Of a DNA stretch of 64,000 nucleotides, positions 3,741 through 41,087 are shown piece after piece; position 1 is the first letter of the stretch; every line of letters starts with the position of its first letter. The notes under the pieces were generated by a model. It searched no databases and was not told where the DNA came from. It saw nothing but the letters and a program-made list of their open reading frames with translations. Origin of the DNA: Patescibacteria group bacterium (GTDB lineage: Bacteria; Patescibacteriota; Minisyncoccia; UBA6257; 1-14-0-10-40-38); the NCBI GenBank assembly GCA_038064975.1, contig JBBTRX010000006.1:79154-143153 (forward strand), read 5' to 3'. A program made the translations under genes and the position numbers.

Positions 3741-4667
3741 TTATTGAGAAGTTTTCTCAATGATCATAGCAGTGTTTTTCAGACAAGTTTCTTTCTTCCT
3801 TTCTTGTTCTATAAATTCACAAACCGAAATGTCTGGCAATAAAGCAGCAACCGAATCAAAACAGCCGTCTTTATCGGTAAGATTAGTAAGATTATTACAA
3901 AGAGATGGATCGTGTTCTTGTACTGCTAAGTTAATATAACAAGCGCGTATAGTATATTTCCCCACATTAAGACAAATGTCAGAGTTTTTAGTCTGCAGAG
4001 CCGCATTGTTATAACAAATACCTTGCCAAATTTCACCTTTTAATAATTTACACGCTTCAGAGTCGCCAGTATTTCTTACCACTTCAGAAACGCATTCGGG
4101 AAATGTAGCGCTACTAGAAGGGTCATGAATTTTAAAACACAAAGAAATGTCATTTTGCGCAATCGCTTTTTGTTGTAAAAGCTTACTTTCTTCAGATGTC
4201 TGATATGAAGTAATTGAAAAAATAATAAAAACAAATAAAATAACGGACAGAAAATAATTAAATATCTCAATATTAGGGCGACGTTCCTTTTGTCTGTGTA
4301 GTATGGAAACGATAATTATTGAAACAATTGCGACCAACAAAGCAGGGGTGGCAAACCATAACAACTCACGGAACGAAACAAGATCTGCTTCCGGCAAAGC
4401 AATTTTATTGTAAACAAGCGGAGAGATAAAAACCCATACCATAGGAGCAATCCAGAGCAGTATTTTAGTCCTATGATAAAGAAGAAGAGATGCTAAAAAT
4501 AAAAGAAAAAGAATTCCAAAATGAGCTATTCCATACGAATTAAGGGTTGCGAAAAATCTGCCCTGATAACGGTAATTCAGAATAAGTCTTGGCAGAAGAG
4601 TAATAAGGGATGAGCCAATAATAGCAAGAGCAATATTATGTAGTATTTTTCTTAATGTTGCGTTCAT
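3741..4667 (-). CDS. integral membrane protein with a C-terminal Cys-rich extracytoplasmic domain (hypothetical)
   Basis: Five or six predicted TM helices in the N-terminal 170 aa, followed by a domain with more than 12 Cys. The DNA is AT-rich (island). Confidence 0.5.
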   Translation of the reverse strand: MNATLRKILHNIALAIIGSSLITLLPRLILNYRYQGRFFATLNSYGIAHFGILFLLFLASLLLYHRTKILLWIAPMVWVFISPLVYNKIALPEADLVSFRELLWFATPALLVAIVSIIIVSILHRQKERRPNIEIFNYFLSVILFVFIIFSITSYQTSEESKLLQQKAIAQNDISLCFKIHDPSSSATFPECVSEVVRNTGDSEACKLLKGEIWQGICYNNAALQTKNSDICLNVGKYTIRACYINLAVQEHDPSLCNNLTNLTDKDGCFDSVAALLPDISVCEFIEQERKKETCLKNTAMIIEKTSQ

Positions 4668-4727
4668 ATATAAATTCTATCAGATATTTTCTAGGTTTGC
4701 AGAATTGGGCAAAAAGGGGCAGAATAA

Positions 4728-4847
4728 TTTGAAGTTACTATTCCTATAGAAATAGTTCGCGAACTCAAATGGAAAGAGAGGCAGCGCGTAGTCGTAACCA
4801 AGAAGGAAAAATCTTTGATTATTAAGGACTATACTCCGAAGAAGTAA
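4728..4847 (+). pseudogene. AbrB/MazE (SpoVT-AbrB swapped-hairpin) antitoxin-like remnant without a canonical start codon
   Basis: Frame 3 translates FEVTIPIEIVRELKWKERQRVVVTKKEKSLIIKDYTPKK*, which contains the IPxEIR and KxGDxV-like core of AbrB/MazE domains. No ATG, GTG or TTG start lies after the preceding TAA, and no toxin partner follows. Confidence 0.25.
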
Positions 4848-4912
4848 GAGGGTGTAAAGAGATTTCTTACAGGGATATTTGAGGCAAAGGTTTTTCTGCT
4901 ATTGATATATCT

Positions 4913-5530
4913 ATGAATATTTTTCAAAAAGGAAATTTTGAACCATTGTCTAATGAATTTAAACGATTAGGATTTTTAGCTTTGCAACAACTATCAAAAT
5001 TTCAAAAAAAATTTAATATTAGTGACACAGACACAACAATTAATTCTATTAGAGATACTATTGTTTCTAGTTATTTAGGCTTTGATCTTATTAATAAGAA
5101 CAAGCATGGTTTCGATGCAAAAAATAGTAGAACCGGAGAGTTTCTTGAAGTTAAGCAGTGTAGTTCGTCTGCAAAAAGATGGGGTGGCACATGGAATGAT
5201 ACGAATTTTGAAAAAGCAAAAGCTTTTTCAAATGCAAAATTATTTACAGCAGTTGCTGTCTGGAGTGGCGCCAGTGATCTTCAATTTATTGTTTTTGGTC
5301 AGAATAAAAAGTTAGGTTTATATTTACTGGATAGAGTAAAAAATAGAAAAAGCGGAAGTCGTTCAACACAAACTATTAGTATAGAAAAACTTATAGAGTG
5401 GGGGTTTATCGTTATTGTGCCTCCCGACAAAAAAGTAAACGCAGTATTGAAACAATTAGCTGTATATAAAAAGGGAGTATCTAAATATCTTAATTCTAAA
5501 AACATTAAGAAAGTAAATAATTTTAGATAA
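4913..5530 (+). CDS. putative type II restriction endonuclease (PD-(D/E)XK fold) of an R-M module
   Basis: HGFDAKNSRTGEFLEVKQ gives D-x10-E-V-K, a canonical PD-(D/E)XK catalytic spacing. AT-rich, basic, and convergent to a DNA methyltransferase gene. No other family signal was recognised. Confidence 0.4.
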   Translation: MNIFQKGNFEPLSNEFKRLGFLALQQLSKFQKKFNISDTDTTINSIRDTIVSSYLGFDLINKNKHGFDAKNSRTGEFLEVKQCSSSAKRWGGTWNDTNFEKAKAFSNAKLFTAVAVWSGASDLQFIVFGQNKKLGLYLLDRVKNRKSGSRSTQTISIEKLIEWGFIVIVPPDKKVNAVLKQLAVYKKGVSKYLNSKNIKKVNNFR

Positions 5531-5532
5531 AT

Positions 5533-6228
5533 ATGTTAATAGATAAATTTAATAAATTTCTAAAATCGATTGATCTTGAGGCTTATAGAAATCAATATAG
5601 GCCCGTTAAGATTGTAGAAATGGATTTATCCAAAGAGATACAAGCAATTGAAATGCTTTATGAAGTTTATTGGCATCAAAAAAGATTTTTGACGTTTGAA
5701 GAATTTTATGAAGAATATTTAAAAAGTAAGGGAAAAGAGATTGAAGTTTTTAGAAAAAAGACTACGATGTGCAAAGATTGTTTCTATAGAGGATTGCCTG
5801 CAAGAATTTATAGAACATGGGCTAGTATTATTACTCAAATACATGCAGGATATGTCGCTGAGTCTGTTTTTGGAACAGGGACAGTCTCTATGTCTATAGA
5901 ACTTGATCATAAAGGAGCGGATTTTCAGGTTGAATATATAAAGAGAATTTTAAATTATCAAGTAAAAAAGAAATCTCTTGGCAGAGAAGTTAGACAAGAA
6001 AAACCAAAATCAAAGAACCCGTTAAAAGGGGAATTTGTAGATATTAAATACGAAGTTCCTAGTAGTGATTATTTTGAAAATCCGAAAAAGAAGAATGGGG
6101 ATTATAAATTGCCATATGAAAGATTTAAAAACAATAAAGAATTAGAAAGATTTTCAAACGGCTTTGTTGTTTTTACTCCCTATGTTTTTCAGAAAAAGAA
6201 AAAGGAAATAGATGATACTTTAAAATAA
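5533..6228 (+). CDS. hypothetical protein, probable second component of the R-M-like module (nuclease or specificity subunit)
   Basis: Begins 3 nt after the preceding stop (operon). Contains ELDHKGADFQVEYIK acidic/Lys motifs. AT-rich island composition. No confident family assignment. Confidence 0.4.
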   Translation: MLIDKFNKFLKSIDLEAYRNQYRPVKIVEMDLSKEIQAIEMLYEVYWHQKRFLTFEEFYEEYLKSKGKEIEVFRKKTTMCKDCFYRGLPARIYRTWASIITQIHAGYVAESVFGTGTVSMSIELDHKGADFQVEYIKRILNYQVKKKSLGREVRQEKPKSKNPLKGEFVDIKYEVPSSDYFENPKKKNGDYKLPYERFKNNKELERFSNGFVVFTPYVFQKKKKEIDDTLK

Positions 6229-6229
6229 T

Positions 6230-7744
6230 TCAAGAAATATTTACACTAGATACTATCTTTTCGGCCATCCGTACGTAATCGGGATTAATCTCAAAACCGA
6301 TATACGATTGTCCTAATTCTTTTGCTGCGACACATTCTGAACCAGTTCCCACAAACGGGACGAGAACCACGCCGTCTTTATTCGGAATTGCTGACCTGAT
6401 AAGCCTTCTAGAAAGCTCAAGGGGTTTCTGTGTAGGATGTTTCATTATTTCATGTCCTTCGTGTTTCTGTAATTGTCGTGGCGCATGTACTTCGTCGCAG
6501 GTTTTGCATAAAAACCATCTTTCAATCATTCCTGCTCCACCAGCTAAAGCAGCGATTTTAATAACATCTCGGGGCAATGCTCCACCAGCATGAGCGTTGT
6601 AAATAGTCTCAGTCCCTCCTTTACTGAATCTTCCCACCGTTCCTTTTCTTACTTTTCCAGCAGCTCCATTTAAAAATCCTTCGGTATAGGGTTCCCTAAC
6701 GTCATCTCTATTAAAATTTGGCTTCTCTTTCCAAGCGCAAATAATTGATTCATGACTTCTCTGCCAAAAATTTAAAGAAGCAACATTTTTATTCGTATAA
6801 TGCCAAATTAACCAGCGTTTATTTATAGGGATTTCTACAGAGAGATGAGCTAAAATTTCACTAAATCCATATATAAACATTGTTCCCGCTGGTTTCATTA
6901 TCCTAATACTTTGATTGATCCATTCTTTGCACCACGAAACATATTCACTTAATTCTCGTTTATCAATGTTATTTCCAAAATCTTTACCGATATTATATGG
7001 AGGATCAATTATAATAACGTCGCAACTTTCTGACGGCAAATCTGATAATCCTTTTATTACATCACTTAATAATATTTTATTGAGTGGGAGTTTTTGATAT
7101 TTTTTCTCTTCCCTTTTGATTTTCGGCAAAACCGAAACATTTTGAGGATTTTCTTTAATCACATCAAGTACGATTCCTTGTATAGAAACATCACGATCAT
7201 CTCGTAATATGATCGGCTCCATGTTTTTATTTGCCGGCTGTAATCGTATATGATTTTTTTCTTTATAGAATTTTTTTAACGTTGCTTCTTGATTATCTAT
7301 TAATGCAACAACTTTTTCTCCATTGTTTGCCGTTGATTGATGTTTGACAAGAATGATGTCCCCATCATTTATATTTTCTTCAACCATACTATTGCCAATC
7401 ACGCGAAGCGCATAAACATCTCCAGAAAGGGGGATTCTGTTTTGCGGTACAGCAATCGTTTCTTTTTCTACGTCAAAAAGAGTAAGGGGTTGTCCTGCGG
7501 CAATGGCGCCCAAGAGGGGAACTTTCACTAATTTTTCTGATCTGGATATCGTTATACTGCGCGGCTTATTGATTTGTTTATTTAATAAACCCATTTCTTC
7601 TAATGCGCTTACGTGCTGGTGTACGGTAGAGACTGCTCGCAATTTGAAATGATGCTTAATTTCTTGGAGTGAAGGAGCGTACCCCTTTTTAGCGGTGGAA
7701 GCGATAACAAAGTCGTAGATTTGTTTTTGTTTCCTTGTGAGCAT
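6230..7744 (-). CDS. LexA repressor fused to a beta-class N4-cytosine/N6-adenine DNA methyltransferase
   Basis: The N-terminal 200 aa align along their whole length with LexA: LTRKQKQIYDFV winged HTH, the Ala-Gly cleavage site in PLLGAIAAGQP, catalytic Ser in GNSM and Lys in ATLKKF. The C-terminal 300 aa carry IIIDPPYNIG (motif IV DPPY), HPTQKPLEL and VLVPFVGTGSE (motif I); this order is typical of pfam01555-type MTases. Confidence 0.8.
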   Translation of the reverse strand: MLTRKQKQIYDFVIASTAKKGYAPSLQEIKHHFKLRAVSTVHQHVSALEEMGLLNKQINKPRSITISRSEKLVKVPLLGAIAAGQPLTLFDVEKETIAVPQNRIPLSGDVYALRVIGNSMVEENINDGDIILVKHQSTANNGEKVVALIDNQEATLKKFYKEKNHIRLQPANKNMEPIILRDDRDVSIQGIVLDVIKENPQNVSVLPKIKREEKKYQKLPLNKILLSDVIKGLSDLPSESCDVIIIDPPYNIGKDFGNNIDKRELSEYVSWCKEWINQSIRIMKPAGTMFIYGFSEILAHLSVEIPINKRWLIWHYTNKNVASLNFWQRSHESIICAWKEKPNFNRDDVREPYTEGFLNGAAGKVRKGTVGRFSKGGTETIYNAHAGGALPRDVIKIAALAGGAGMIERWFLCKTCDEVHAPRQLQKHEGHEIMKHPTQKPLELSRRLIRSAIPNKDGVVLVPFVGTGSECVAAKELGQSYIGFEINPDYVRMAEKIVSSVNIS

Positions 7745-7875
7745 ATACTAATTTTAACAATAAAATACCGAAAGAAAACCGAAACTTATCCCCAGATTGC
7801 TTTGTGCATTTTTAGAGAGTAAAATACTAATGTAAATTTAAGGTCCGACTTAGAAAAAGCACTTCGTTTCTTCCA

Positions 7876-7902
7876 AGCCGGGCTCCCGCCCGGTTTTGTT
7901 TA
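7876..7902 (+). terminator. orphan intrinsic terminator-like hairpin 18 nt upstream of the next start codon
   Basis: ccgggc-tccc-gcccgg followed by ttttgttt. No plus-strand gene lies upstream. Confidence 0.4.
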
Positions 7903-7919
7903 GAAAAAATTAACAGTAT

Positions 7920-8855
7920 ATGATCAATGCAATAGAACTTTACGGAACCCTAATTCTTACTTTACTTGGCTTTATTGTTCCCATTCTAACGATTCTACTT
8001 TCTTTATTTCCACAAGGTACAAAATCATTAGCACTTAAATATGAAAATGAAAGAAAGCAAAGTGAAGAAAATATTTCAAATGAAATTAAAAAGAAAGAAA
8101 CAGAAAAAGGACTAGATTACGATTCTCTTAAGGAGACGCTGAAAGGTTTAGAAAAAAAGAGGTCAGAAGCTAAATCAAAGCTTGAGTATTTACATCCAGG
8201 CAGCTTTCTTTTCAAAACAACGATCCCATTCATTGTTGCATTCATGGGCGTATTACTCATATTACTTGACATACCAATTTTTGAAACGATTATAGTATTA
8301 ATCTCTAGCATTTTTGCTTTCGTAGCCGGAGTTATGACTTTATTTACTAGCATATCTGTTCTATTTGAAGTAGGAGAAATCACTAACCAAGCAAAAAATT
8401 CTAACGAAGAAAAAATAATTGAACTCTTATCAATTTTAGTTGAAAACAGTGGAACAGATAACCTTTATTTAAAAGAAGACGAAATCAAAGTGAAATTCGG
8501 TGATAAAAATCTAAAAGAAAACGAGAAGTTTGATTTTTCAGTTAACACTCAACATAAAATATCCATTAGGGTCCATAACAGCGCAGACAAGATGGCAAAA
8601 AATATTGAAGTAGGCTTTGTCTTTCCTAAAGATGTTTTAATAGAGAAAACATCTAATCTATCTTCAATATTTACAGATGAATCAATTCAAATTGTAAGAT
8701 TCAAGAATGAAATAATTCAGGCACATGAAAGTAATGATAAAGGTGCTCTACGAATTACTTTTTTGAAACCCGGAGAGGTGTCAATAGATCTATTTATAAA
8801 AGGAGAAAACGTAAAATACAAAAGATTTTCTTTCAAACTTAATATAATAAACTAA
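7920..8855 (+). CDS. membrane protein with charged coiled-coil segment (hypothetical)
   Basis: Two TM pairs flank a KE-rich segment; the C-terminal domain is soluble. AT-rich island composition. Confidence 0.5.
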   Translation: MINAIELYGTLILTLLGFIVPILTILLSLFPQGTKSLALKYENERKQSEENISNEIKKKETEKGLDYDSLKETLKGLEKKRSEAKSKLEYLHPGSFLFKTTIPFIVAFMGVLLILLDIPIFETIIVLISSIFAFVAGVMTLFTSISVLFEVGEITNQAKNSNEEKIIELLSILVENSGTDNLYLKEDEIKVKFGDKNLKENEKFDFSVNTQHKISIRVHNSADKMAKNIEVGFVFPKDVLIEKTSNLSSIFTDESIQIVRFKNEIIQAHESNDKGALRITFLKPGEVSIDLFIKGENVKYKRFSFKLNIIN

Positions 8856-8880
8856 TATAGTTCTAGAAAAAATAATAAAA

Positions 8881-9294
8881 ATGGAAATAATAAAAGATAT
8901 TAAAGATCGCATTCAGTTCCTAGTAACCATTGAAATATTTTTTCTGACTTTGACTTACTCTTTCTTTAGATCTGTGGGAAGTGATGAGTTGGTGTCTAAC
9001 AAGAATGCTTTCGCATGGGGAATAGGTGTTGCTTTTTGTATAGTGAATTATCTTTTGATCGGAAATTTTACTGAATTTAAAAGTTCTTTTCTTAAGAAAA
9101 TTTGCTGGACTATATCTGCAAATATTTTCTTTTTTATTATACCGATTCTGATTTTCGCCTCCGCCATGAGCAATCCATTACCATCTTATTATAATTTACC
9201 ATTTTATCTTTCTCTCACGGGAACATTATGGATGCCCATTATAACGACTGCTTTTATGGTTATAGGAGGAACTTATTTTAAATTTAAAAAATAA
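8881..9294 (+). CDS. hypothetical integral membrane protein (4 TM)
   Basis: Hydrophobic 137-aa ORF. It is the last gene of the AT-rich island. Confidence 0.45.
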   Translation: MEIIKDIKDRIQFLVTIEIFFLTLTYSFFRSVGSDELVSNKNAFAWGIGVAFCIVNYLLIGNFTEFKSSFLKKICWTISANIFFFIIPILIFASAMSNPLPSYYNLPFYLSLTGTLWMPIITTAFMVIGGTYFKFKK

Positions 9295-9296
9295 TT

Positions 9297-9773
9297 ATGA
9301 GGATAAACAACACATTCAAGCTCATTATAGCCATTGTTGTTTCCGAACTCGCCGGGATCATTGGCTCGGTATTCACGATATCGTCCGTCGCTGGCTGGTA
9401 TGCAGGAATCGTGAAGCCGGCAATTAATCCTCCAGCGTGGGTGTTCGGACCGGTCTGGACGACGCTCTTTGCGCTCATGGGCATCGCCGCGTTCCTCGTA
9501 TGGAAGAAAGGATTGGATCGTAGGGATGTAAAAATTGCCCTCGGTATATTTCTCGGCCAGCTAATCCTGAACACGCTTTGGTCAATTATCTTTTTCGGTC
9601 TACGCAGTCCTGGCGGTGCATTGATTGAGATCGTATTCCTCTGGCTCGCCATTCTCGCTACTATCATCGCTTTTGCAAAAATCTCAAAACCGGCAGCTTG
9701 GCTTTTGGCGCCGTATATCCTTTGGGTTAGCTTCGCGATGTACTTAAACTACGCAATCTGGGCATTGAATTAA
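9297..9773 (+). CDS. tspO: TspO/MBR family tryptophan-rich sensory protein
   Basis: Five-TM architecture with conserved Trp/Pro patterns (PPAWVFGPVWTTLF, LWSIIFFG, APYILWVSFA). GC content returns to the genome average here. Confidence 0.85.
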   Translation: MRINNTFKLIIAIVVSELAGIIGSVFTISSVAGWYAGIVKPAINPPAWVFGPVWTTLFALMGIAAFLVWKKGLDRRDVKIALGIFLGQLILNTLWSIIFFGLRSPGGALIEIVFLWLAILATIIAFAKISKPAAWLLAPYILWVSFAMYLNYAIWALN

Positions 9774-38974: not shown

Positions 38975-39300
38975 AAAAGACCCCAGCTCTCGTAGAACGA
39001 GATCAGGGGTGGAGGAACCAGCGAAAGCATTCTGGGATGTCGGTCTCTCAAAGCTTTAGCTCAAACAACTAGGAAACGTGGGGAAGAGTGACCACGTCAG
39101 ACCCGGAAAGAGGAAGTCCGGTTCTTAGTTGAAGCACCGAGCAAAGAGAGAACTGTGCAATTCCTTTCACTTCTTTGAGCGAGAGATTTTACACAGCCCA
39201 TCCGACTAACGCCAGCGCTTTCGCCGGTCACGGAAACAAGAAACTGGCAAAAGGGAAAAACCCGCGACAGGACACGCGTCATCCACTAAAGCCAAGTACA
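38975..39300 (-). ncRNA. candidate stand-alone noncoding RNA of about 325 nt (unknown family)
   Basis: Bounded by a TTGACA-16-TAATAT promoter (39306..39333) and a terminator (38975..39012: cccctgatctcg...cgagagctgggg followed by UCUUUUUUU). There is no convincing ORF or RBS. It contains a GACCCGGAAAGAGGAAGUCCGG hairpin. Confidence 0.3.
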
Positions 39301-39305
39301 ATATG

Positions 39306-39333
39306 TGCTGCCGTAATATTACCTTCTCACGCT
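39306..39333 (-). promoter_or_regulatory. sigma70-type promoter of the candidate ncRNA
   Basis: On the minus strand: TTGACA, 16 nt, then TAATAT. Confidence 0.45.
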
Positions 39334-39409
39334 ACGATGTCAAGGGGTAGATGTATTCCCATAATTAGTTATGGTTATACACAATAAATACTGTTCTAAG
39401 CTTCTACTC

Positions 39410-40078
39410 TTAAAAATGAAAAATTTGTGAAAGCTCTCCCCCCTGAAGTACTACCTTTTGTTTAGGTTCGAAAATATGATATGAAAATTGGTCAATAAAA
39501 TCTTCGTTTTTAACGCGAACCGCTTTAAAATTCTTAAATGATTGGGCGGCGGTGTCAAAAACCTCTCTTGCCCGAAAGGGAGTATTCGCGCTCGTTACGA
39601 GGCGCATATTCATAGCACTCCCCCGCTTTTCCGGCTTGGATATGACTTGAAATGAAGCGGATTCTCCCAAAAGTTCTACCGTAGAAAGTTCTTTTGCCAT
39701 GCGCGAAAATGCTGTCATTTCTCCCGATGCCTCTGTAGTTTTATTTTTAGGCACAAGATAACCTGCTTCCACGGCATGACCCACAGAAAAAAGATTGTAG
39801 TCGTGCATGGCATACATCTCCGTTCCGGGCAGAGCTTTTTTAAGATTATGTTCTATGAGCGGGTACACAGAAATAGGCATGGCCATATACCATGCGATTT
39901 CTTTACCAAAATTATGAACTGCTGCTTCTAACGTGAATGGAATTCGCGAGCGTTCTAGAGTGTCGTAGAACTCCGCGGCTTTCCCCGGATACCCCATTCT
40001 AAACACAGTTGGAGTTTTAACGGTAAAAAGTTGGACGCGTTCAAGGTGTCGTGAAAAATACTGAAATGGGTTTTGCAT
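39410..40078 (-). CDS. hypothetical protein (222 aa)
   Basis: Clean ORF with normal composition. No family recognised. Confidence 0.5.
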   Translation of the reverse strand: MQNPFQYFSRHLERVQLFTVKTPTVFRMGYPGKAAEFYDTLERSRIPFTLEAAVHNFGKEIAWYMAMPISVYPLIEHNLKKALPGTEMYAMHDYNLFSVGHAVEAGYLVPKNKTTEASGEMTAFSRMAKELSTVELLGESASFQVISKPEKRGSAMNMRLVTSANTPFRAREVFDTAAQSFKNFKAVRVKNEDFIDQFSYHIFEPKQKVVLQGGELSQIFHF

Positions 40079-40088
40079 TATAGAGACG

Positions 40089-41087
40089 CTATGCTGAATG
40101 CTTTATCAGTATAACATCTCCATCTTTCATGCGATATTCTTTTCCCTCGGTGTGGATAAGTCCTTTGCGTTGCGCCTGCGTCCATCCGCCCGCGTGAAGT
40201 AAAACATTCCATGCCACGACATCCGCGCGAATAAATTTCTTTTCAAAATCAGAATGAATAGCTCCGGCAGCCTGTGGCGCGGTAGATCCATCCACGATAA
40301 TCCAACTGCGCGTTTCTTCCGGTCCTGTCGTAAAAAAACTAATAAGGCCGAGCTCCCGATACGCAGCCTTTACCAACTCCCCGATATCAGTATCTGATCC
40401 GAGATCCGCGATAATACTCGCTCCCCCTAGGGAGGTAATAGCGCTCTTTAATGCCTCTGGCACATGGCTCTCTTTTCCGTTCAAAAGATAAATCTGTTTT
40501 TTTGCCGTTAGAAGCTGAAGTTCTTTAATAAGCGGTTCGTTAGCAAAAGCAATCACAAGCTTACCTTTCAAAAGTTCTTCCCGAACCTGATTTCCAACCT
40601 CAAGATTTTTTTTAGCATCCTTATCTCCCGATCGAGCCTCCGCTTCAAGTTTTTTTATACGCTTCTCAAGAATATCTAAATCCTTCAAAATAAGCTCCGT
40701 GTTAATAATTTCCATGTCCCGAAGCGGATCAATAGATTCTTCCACATGGATAATAGACTCATCGGAAAAGCACCGCAAAACCTGGACAATGATTTGAGTT
40801 TCGCGGATATGCGTCAAAAATTGATTACCTAATCCTTCTCCCTTATTTGCTCCCCGCACGAGTCCGGCTATGTCATAGAACTCAACAACCGCAGGGATTT
40901 TCTTCGCCGATTCAGAAAGTTTAGCAAGGTTGTCTACGCGTTCATCCGGAACAGGAACAATACCTACATTAGGATCAATAGTGCAGAAAGGATAGTTCGC
41001 GATATTTACATCATTATTAGTGATGAGATGGAAGAGCGTTGATTTGCCGACATTCGGGAGACCAACAATGCCTACGGAAAGTTTCAT
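40089..41087 (-). CDS. ychF: ribosome-binding ATPase YchF
   Basis: MKLSVGIVGLPNVGKSTLF, ANYPFCTIDPNVG and a C-terminal TGS domain (FFTTGPEETRSW...GKEYRMKDGDVI). The 95 codons upstream in the ORF are not conserved and were treated as spurious. Confidence 0.85.
   Translation of the reverse strand: MKLSVGIVGLPNVGKSTLFHLITNNDVNIANYPFCTIDPNVGIVPVPDERVDNLAKLSESAKKIPAVVEFYDIAGLVRGANKGEGLGNQFLTHIRETQIIVQVLRCFSDESIIHVEESIDPLRDMEIINTELILKDLDILEKRIKKLEAEARSGDKDAKKNLEVGNQVREELLKGKLVIAFANEPLIKELQLLTAKKQIYLLNGKESHVPEALKSAITSLGGASIIADLGSDTDIGELVKAAYRELGLISFFTTGPEETRSWIIVDGSTAPQAAGAIHSDFEKKFIRADVVAWNVLLHAGGWTQAQRKGLIHTEGKEYRMKDGDVILIKHSA

Follow-up and report, generated by a model that had tools for sequence, protein, structure and literature searches.

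The 64,000 nt stretch of the Patescibacteria group bacterium contig JBBTRX010000006.1 (assembly GCA_038064975.1; positions 79,154 to 143,153 of the forward strand), hereafter referred to as the window, harbors three adjoining genes which are likely to constitute a type IIP restriction-modification (R-M) module, most likely specific for TCGA. In this module a single methyltransferase (MTase) is accompanied by two independent and unrelated restriction endonucleases (REases), and the LexA portion fused to the MTase is predicted to repress its own promoter. The genes, each an open reading frame (ORF) and named here g1, g2 and g3, and the domains of g3 are as follows:

4913..5530, + strand: g1, 205 aa, candidate type IIP REase with a PvuII-like PD-(D/E)XK fold and the triad D68, E79 and K81
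5533..6228, + strand: g2, 231 aa, TaqI-family type II REase (Pfam RE_TaqI), probable site TCGA
6230..7744, - strand: g3, 504 aa, LexA-S24-MTase fusion
6233..7081, - strand: beta-class MTase domain, g3 aa ~222-504 (Pfam N6_N4_Mtase, PF01555; E-value: 1.3e-37)
7160..7519, - strand: LexA S24 autoprotease/dimerization domain, g3 aa 76-195 (Pfam Peptidase_S24; E-value: 1.4e-28)
7550..7744, - strand: LexA winged helix-turn-helix (HTH) DNA-binding domain, g3 aa 1-65 (Pfam LexA_DNA_bind; E-value: 2.3e-12; helix ...VSTVHQHVSAL...)

A first-pass annotation of this DNA had placed the three genes at exactly these ORF boundaries and read them as a type II R-M system. The MTase and the adjacent REases bear out that general assignment, but the pairing of the nucleases and the mode of control change. 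The spacing of the genes is also amended: g1 and g2 lie in tandem on the same strand with 2 nt, rather than 3 nt, between the g1 stop and the g2 ATG. Both nuclease genes had furthermore been described as abutting the MTase gene tail to tail at a distance of 2 nt. The convergent orientation holds, with a single nucleotide (6229) between the stop codon of g2 (6226-6228) and that of g3 (6230-6232), but since g1 is placed upstream of g2, it is g2 alone that abuts the MTase gene.

The LexA-S24-MTase fusion

Three domains are resolved in g3 by Pfam, namely LexA_DNA_bind (aa 2-62), Peptidase_S24 (aa 76-192) and N6_N4_Mtase (aa 242-496). The protein scores 179.6 bits against the NCBIfam lexA model TIGR00498 (equivalog cut-off: 110.95), its S24 domain matches the PDB LexA 3k2z (E-value: 3.5e-32), and the 14 fusions aligned show no variation at A82-G83 (nt 7496-7501), where LexA would be cleaved, or at the catalytic S118 and K156. 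The N-terminal half is predicted to represent a complete, cleavage-competent LexA. The PDB relatives of the MTase domain are beta-class MTases, and the motif IV DPPY (246-249) and an insert of the form C412-x2-C415...H427-x2-H430 (window ~6440-6510) are likewise invariant in the aligned fusions. The insert, which is also found in the unfused homolog of locus L088, possibly forms a zinc-binding element within the target-recognition region. The g3 MTase is probably an N6-adenine MTase producing m6A at TCGA.

Each of the 120 best fusion matches, which are 69-75% identical, has the same three domains, and the fusion is encoded in at least 181 species-level genomes of the candidate phyla radiation (CPR). 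Neither a second MTase (motif IV) nor a second lexA was found in the 64-kb window. MTases of the SsoII/Ecl18kI type, EcoRII and MspI carry an N-terminal autoregulatory region which sets the balance between modification (M) and restriction (R) without a C-protein. The window MTase likewise bears an N-terminal HTH predicted to repress its own promoter, but differs from the SsoII/EcoRII-type enzymes in that this part is an entire LexA, autoprotease included, in that the candidate operator is a directly repeated word with a period of 11 bp, and in lacking a shared divergent R promoter. As a complete LexA autoprotease is attached to the MTase, repression should yield to RecA* and DNA damage. The fusion would tie DNA modification to the SOS response in bacteria that have few regulators, and it opens to experiment the question of how a type II system spares its host while DNA is under repair. 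Neither the fusion, the g1 family, the arrangement of two REases with one MTase, CPR TaqI systems nor CPR methylomes were described in the literature searched, although an earlier description of the fusion or its motif may exist in REBASE or the Patescibacteria SOS-network paper (Sanchez-Osuna et al. 2017), which lie outside that literature.

The TaqI-family endonuclease g2

The second gene of the putative endonuclease pair had not been assigned to any family in the first-pass annotation. The g2 protein product matches Pfam RE_TaqI (PF09573; E-value: 3.5e-35) with 121.9 bits, against a gathering score of 26.1, over profile positions 2-219 of 229, a match that places it squarely within the TaqI family. 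Like g1, it shows a PD-(D/E)XK-type core.

A close known counterpart is the TaqI system of Thermus aquaticus (T^CGA, m6A), whose REase belongs to the same family as g2. Both systems are of type IIP and encode R and M by distinct genes, and TCGA is the strongly avoided word in the window and the sister loci. M.TaqI is a gamma-class MTase, whereas the window MTase is of the beta class (PF01555), contains the zinc-like insert and is fused to LexA. The window module furthermore carries the extra, unrelated REase g1.

The g1 family of candidate endonucleases

The catalytic motif of g1, HGFD68-AKNSRTGEFL-E79-V-K81, has the D-x10-E-x-K form that had previously been singled out as canonical PD-(D/E)XK spacing. 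Among 38 diverse members of the family, with identities reaching as low as 20-30%, D68, E79 and K81 are each retained in 90% or more, and the conservation of the triad across so divergent a family argues that the motif is more than a chance occurrence. No matches to g1 were obtained in Pfam, NCBIfam, PADLOC or the PDB sequences, and the family is therefore new at the sequence level within the PD-(D/E)XK superfamily. Structure prediction, the only method to resolve the identity of g1, yielded a very confident PvuII-like model, with a restriction-endonuclease-like alpha/beta core that can be superposed on PvuII.

The family falls into 213 clusters when grouped at 90% identity and into 126 when grouped at 50%. 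It has members in metagenome-assembled genomes of Parcubacteria, Bacteroidota and Ignavibacteria, and all are annotated as 'hypothetical'. In the loci examined, g1 homologs always adjoin a gene for a beta-class (N6_N4) MTase, in three arrangements. In L001 and L002, from Ignavibacteria and another non-CPR contig, the gene overlaps that of a plain MTase (340-351 aa) in a co-directional operon of two genes. In CPR genomes it is convergent with the LexA-MTase fusion, and in one Paceibacterota lineage with an unfused 306-aa MTase sharing 73% identity with the g3 MTase domain.

In comparison with the PvuII system, which consists of R.PvuII, the beta-class M.PvuII and C.PvuII, g1 shares only ~16% identity with R.PvuII. 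The site of g1 and g3 is probably TCGA rather than the CAGCTG of PvuII, the DPPY motif of g3 suggests N6-adenine rather than N4-cytosine methylation, and the window has no counterpart to the C gene. Compact (~205 aa), distributed over several phyla, outside the family libraries and with a probable 4-bp site, the g1 family is a candidate for a new enzyme.

Long members of the family (345-689 aa) were considered as potentially informative fusions and set aside, as one bears a C-terminal MarR/TrmB-like HTH (P0127; 550 aa) and the rest lack recognizable domains; P0125 (559 aa), P0127, P0203 and P0239 contain two g1-like stretches or extra regions. In one Parcubacteria lineage (L004-L006, L073 and L087), the g1 homolog starts ~33 nt after rpoD, giving a dnaG-rpoD-g1 array, and the fusion gene is divergent from a gene encoding a 979-aa UvrD-helicase/PDDEXK protein, which is plausibly a second LexA target via a common intergenic operator.

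Alternative endonucleases accompanying one methylase

A census was taken of 80 of the 181 species-level loci encoding the fusion. An REase gene adjoining the MTase gene is conserved in approximately 70 of the 80. The TaqI-like gene alone is present in ~62 loci, tail to tail with the fusion gene at a distance of 10-35 nt, while a g1 homolog alone occupies the same slot in 6/80 loci. Neither REase is encoded in five loci where the contig runs past the slot, and the contig ends too early in a further three. Both g1 and g2 occur together only in the window organism among ~95 loci. The g1-g2-fusion tandem is identical in three independent assemblies derived from different sequencing runs, and as such is not an assembly artefact.

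The two enzymes, which had been described as an endonuclease pair, are indeed both nuclease-like. As each is found alone with the same MTase family elsewhere, however, they represent alternative REases rather than subunits. The obligate co-occurrence expected of a heterodimeric two-gene REase, such as BbvCI or Bpu10I, was not observed, with g1 and g2 separate in all other loci examined. The similarity of the MTase recognition region (aa 301-432) is 83.1% between g1- and TaqI-associated fusions, compared with 83.8-83.9% within each class, and no alignment column of this region discriminates the REase classes. One methylation specificity must therefore protect against both nucleases, and the simplest reading would be TCGA as the site of both g1 and g2, or for g1 a sub-site in which TCGA is contained. 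The two enzymes are a clear example of REases without common ancestry that share a single MTase, and the presence of both makes the locus a direct means of studying REase replacement without a lethal protection gap. The two-nuclease locus could represent a redundant 'double lock' or an intermediate of REase replacement.

TCGA avoidance and the probable recognition site

The first-pass annotation had suggested a search for an under-represented palindromic 4-6-mer in the host genome, and in the window such a depletion was found for TCGA. Observed/expected (O/E) ratios of 4-mer palindromes, with expected counts from a maximal-order Markov model, are as follows:

Window, 64 kb: TCGA 68 observed and 209 expected, O/E 0.33, z=-9.7, most depleted 4-mer palindrome
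TaqI-type loci, 842 kb: TCGA O/E 0.40, z=-28.5, first rank in 40/66 loci
Six g1-only loci: TCGA O/E 0.48, z=-10.5
Four further g1-only loci: TCGA O/E 0.24, most depleted palindrome
L001 (non-CPR, g1 with a different MTase): TCGA O/E 0.51, most depleted palindrome

Family membership and word avoidance together make TCGA the probable site of the module. Several observations weigh against this site, or against other parts of the proposed module. TaqI-family members at ~30% identity may have other sites. Fusion loci without an adjacent REase are also TCGA-depleted (O/E 0.44), and the depletion may in part be lineage-wide, the CPR comparison loci all being system-bearing. On the side of control, a convincing promoter for g1-g2 was not found by consensus scan, and the co-variation of operator and recognition helix described below is uncorrected for phylogeny. 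As regards g1, the fold neighbors following PvuII are NhoI, Eco15I-N and DpnI, methyl-dependent enzymes; the partner MTase in the non-CPR Ignavibacteria shares only ~25% identity with the g3 MTase; and in several g1-only loci the depletion of GATC equals that of TCGA.

The points regarding g1 would also be expected if g1 were not isospecific with g3, being either methylation-dependent (type IIM/IV-like) or a type II enzyme of different specificity, whose site is guarded by an MTase encoded elsewhere in the genome. We consider this unlikely. The homologs always adjoin an N6_N4 MTase gene, with overlapping ORFs in L001 and L002, and fill the exact slot of the TaqI-like gene, and g1 varies in step with the unfused MTase (identities of 71% and 73%, respectively). 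Furthermore, TCGA is the top depleted palindrome in the further g1-only loci and in L001, while GATC is not depleted in the window (O/E 0.94), and a methyl-dependent g1 encoded beside an active MTase would harm its own host were the mark in question its target. GATC itself was considered as the g1 site and rejected on its normal frequency in the window and on the lead of TCGA in the additional g1-only loci. Strong GATC avoidance is nevertheless seen in several g1-type CPR genomes (L004-L006, L035, L073, L087 and L088; in L004, six observed against 36 expected), suggesting that an additional DpnII/MboI-like system is encoded elsewhere in those genomes.

Control of the module

Three elements can be recognized upstream of g3:

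7751..7759, - strand: extended -10-like element TGTTAAAAT, directly downstream of the repeat and ending 7 nt before the g3 ATG, identified by eye
7767..7784, - strand: candidate LexA operator TTTCGGT-N4-TTTCGGT, a direct repeat with an 11-bp period overlapping the g3 core promoter
7786..7794, + strand: DnaA-box-like element TTATCCCCA (consensus TTATCCACA; 1 mismatch), upstream of the operator and promoter

The element TGTTAAAAT was not called in a consensus promoter scan. Its position suggests that the g3 mRNA would be leaderless or near-leaderless. An equivalent direct repeat is present at the matching promoter position in most of 82 fusion loci, with both copies of the repeated word changing together between lineages (TTTCTAT, TTTCGGT, GCTCGGG, TTTAGG and GTTCGGT). 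The recognition helix tracks the word, with '...STAHFH...' accompanying CTA words and '...HQH/HEH...' the CGG-type words (F versus Q/E), in a comparison made without correction for phylogeny. Within the window, the repeat at 7767..7784 is the sole match at up to one mismatch, and matches with two mismatches occur at chance level; no second copy of the operator, which would mark another regulon member, was found in the 64 kb. Likewise, in ~66 sister loci the repeat is unique to the fusion promoter and never occurs upstream of an REase gene. Inverted-repeat operators were also sought upstream of g3 and the REase genes, and were dropped in favor of the direct repeat as only AT-rich, -10-like dyads were found.

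The LexA box of the Alphaproteobacteria, GTTC-N7-GTTC, is a direct repeat with the same 11-bp period (PMC8565304). The candidate operator shares this period and reads GTTCGGT-N4-GTTCGGT in L015 and L062. The full LexA architecture and the placement of the operator for autoregulation are likewise shared with the alphaproteobacterial LexA, but the window LexA is instead fused to a DNA MTase inside an R-M module.

The upstream element is also conserved. The sequence TGTGGATAA(C) is found at the same position in 59/82 fusion promoters, in which the order is TGTGGATAAC, which reads as the DnaA-box consensus on the opposite strand, followed by a -35-like TTGAYT, the 11-bp-period direct repeat filling the spacer, and the -10 element. 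Across CPR lineages (L004-L086), the DnaA box is perfect or near-perfect and lies ~8-12 nt upstream of the -35 element. Its constancy beside an operator word that varies suggests a second conserved regulator, for example DnaA, or a link to the cell cycle.

No C-protein is encoded in the window according to tblastn searches with five sister-locus C-proteins, in agreement with the first-pass annotation. Among the TaqI-type loci with contig room, however, 28 of 55-56 carry a gene for a 72-aa Xre-type C-protein (HTH_3; E-value: 6e-16; loci L010-L083, e.g. L016, L022 and L046), which ends 3-8 nt before the TaqI-like gene. In these 28 loci, therefore, R has a C-protein of its own and M carries a LexA domain. 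The g1-type loci lack a C gene, and g1 in the window sits where sister loci hold it. The proposal that the LexA moiety stands in for a C-protein, rendering restriction damage-inducible, is thus not upheld. With the repeat located only at the fusion promoter and a C gene present in half of the TaqI-type loci, damage-inducible methylation is likelier than damage-inducible restriction, and the sequences support a predicted LexA autoregulation of M rather than LexA control of R.

It is improbable that only one of the two nucleases is functional, the other being a recently displaced, silent or decaying gene caught in mid-replacement. Such a state would fit the confinement of the tandem to one lineage among ~95 loci, the redundancy of the enzymes, the lack of a clear promoter upstream of g1 and the absence from g2 of the C gene found in half of its relatives. 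Both ORFs are, however, full-length and retain all family-invariant residues without frameshifts or truncations. They are identical in the three assemblies and stand in an operon-like 2-nt spacing. Less probable still, and largely ruled out by the census, is a single two-subunit PD-(D/E)XK endonuclease whose operon is repressed by the LexA moiety acting as a C-protein and induced by damage, since the co-directional 2-nt spacing, the PD-(D/E)XK-type cores of both proteins, the missing C gene and the cleavage-competent appearance of LexA are outweighed by dozens of genomes in which g1 or g2 accompanies the same MTase on its own, so that neither needs the other, by the absence of the repeat upstream of g1-g2 and of every REase gene in the ~66 loci, and by the canonical C gene in half of the TaqI-type sister systems.

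Proposed mechanism

In the proposed type IIP module with one MTase and two independent nucleases, the fusion protein would, at steady state, dimerize via its S24 domain, bind the direct repeat and limit its own synthesis, while the MTase domain would keep host TCGA sites methylated. Unmethylated TCGA in incoming DNA would be cut by both g1 and g2, with g1 possibly acting on a TCGA-containing sub-site. Upon DNA damage, RecA* would trigger self-cleavage at A82-G83, the operator would be vacated and g3 de-repressed, yielding more MTase and LexA. Transcription from de-repressed g3 would run convergently into g2-g1, as there is no terminator between the stop codons 1 nt apart. The net outcome would be more methylation and possibly less restriction, that is, SOS-induced protection, the opposite of SOS-induced restriction. 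Alternatively, the cleaved MTase might be destabilized and restriction unleashed.

In type I R-M systems, DNA damage induces a ClpXP-dependent alleviation of restriction through proteolysis of the R subunit. The outcome proposed for the window module appears to be the same, with the balance shifted towards the protection of unmethylated host DNA after damage. The mechanism would instead act on transcription, M being de-repressed through LexA and R possibly suffering convergent interference, and the system is of type II.

A broader and more tentative reading, which we regard as possible but doubtful, is that the fusion serves as the SOS repressor of these reduced-genome bacteria and at the same time supplies the methylating subunit of their principal R-M system, the conserved MTase forming a fixed 'socket' for swapped isospecific nucleases of the TaqI type or the PvuII-fold g1 family. 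If this were true, self-protection would be reprogrammed directly by DNA damage, and LexA self-cleavage would de-repress the MTase, free it from DNA and alleviate restriction during repair. Were the cleaved MTase degraded, the two stable nucleases could be released as a damage- or phage-triggered suicide switch. The window would represent either the intermediate stage with two nucleases or a double lock kept on purpose against anti-restriction proteins. Should the enzymes be ordinary TCGA isoschizomers under simple autoregulation, the result would be a tidy annotation rather than a discovery.

Genomic setting and additional features

The R-M module lies inside a low-GC island (~4000-9300; 30-36% GC, compared with ~45% elsewhere in the window), in which no mobile-element signatures were found by searches for Rfam families, tRNA genes and flanking repeats. 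The sole content of the 245-nt stretch upstream of g1, between a membrane-protein gene and g1, is the following:

4731..4848, + strand: remnant of a MazE/AbrB (SpoVT) type gene, start-less

The remnant matches Pfam MazE_antitoxin over profile positions 10-44 of 48 (E-value: 1.3e-4; 22.3 bits, gathering score 24.7), lacks an in-frame ATG, GTG or TTG start, and probably represents a pseudogene rather than a C-protein gene. Within it lies the perfect palindrome AGTTCGCGAACT (~4763-4774), which was considered as a Cheo-box-like LexA site and rejected on account of this location, the wrong order of its half-sites and the lack of a counterpart upstream of other g1 and g2 genes.

The R-M genes are flanked in the island by unannotated multi-pass membrane proteins (3741-4667, - strand; 7920-8855 and 8881-9294, + strand), two of the three showing weak SLATT-type matches (PADLOC RTasSLATT, E-value: 0.007; NCBIfam SLATT_1, E-value: 0.064). 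Together with the R-M genes, they could form a small defence island. Between the g3 promoter and the gene at 7920, a GC-rich hairpin, CCGGG-CTCCCG-CCCGG, followed by TTTTGTTT, was identified by eye (7878-7901, + strand). There is no + strand ORF upstream of it, it was not called by consensus scan and it has no match in Rfam.

At the scale of the whole window, the cumulative GC skew reaches its maximum near 39-40 kb, beyond which it falls steadily. The region at ~39000-40200 may represent a replication terminus or origin region, and one of the two perfect DnaA boxes of the window is located at 40151-40159.

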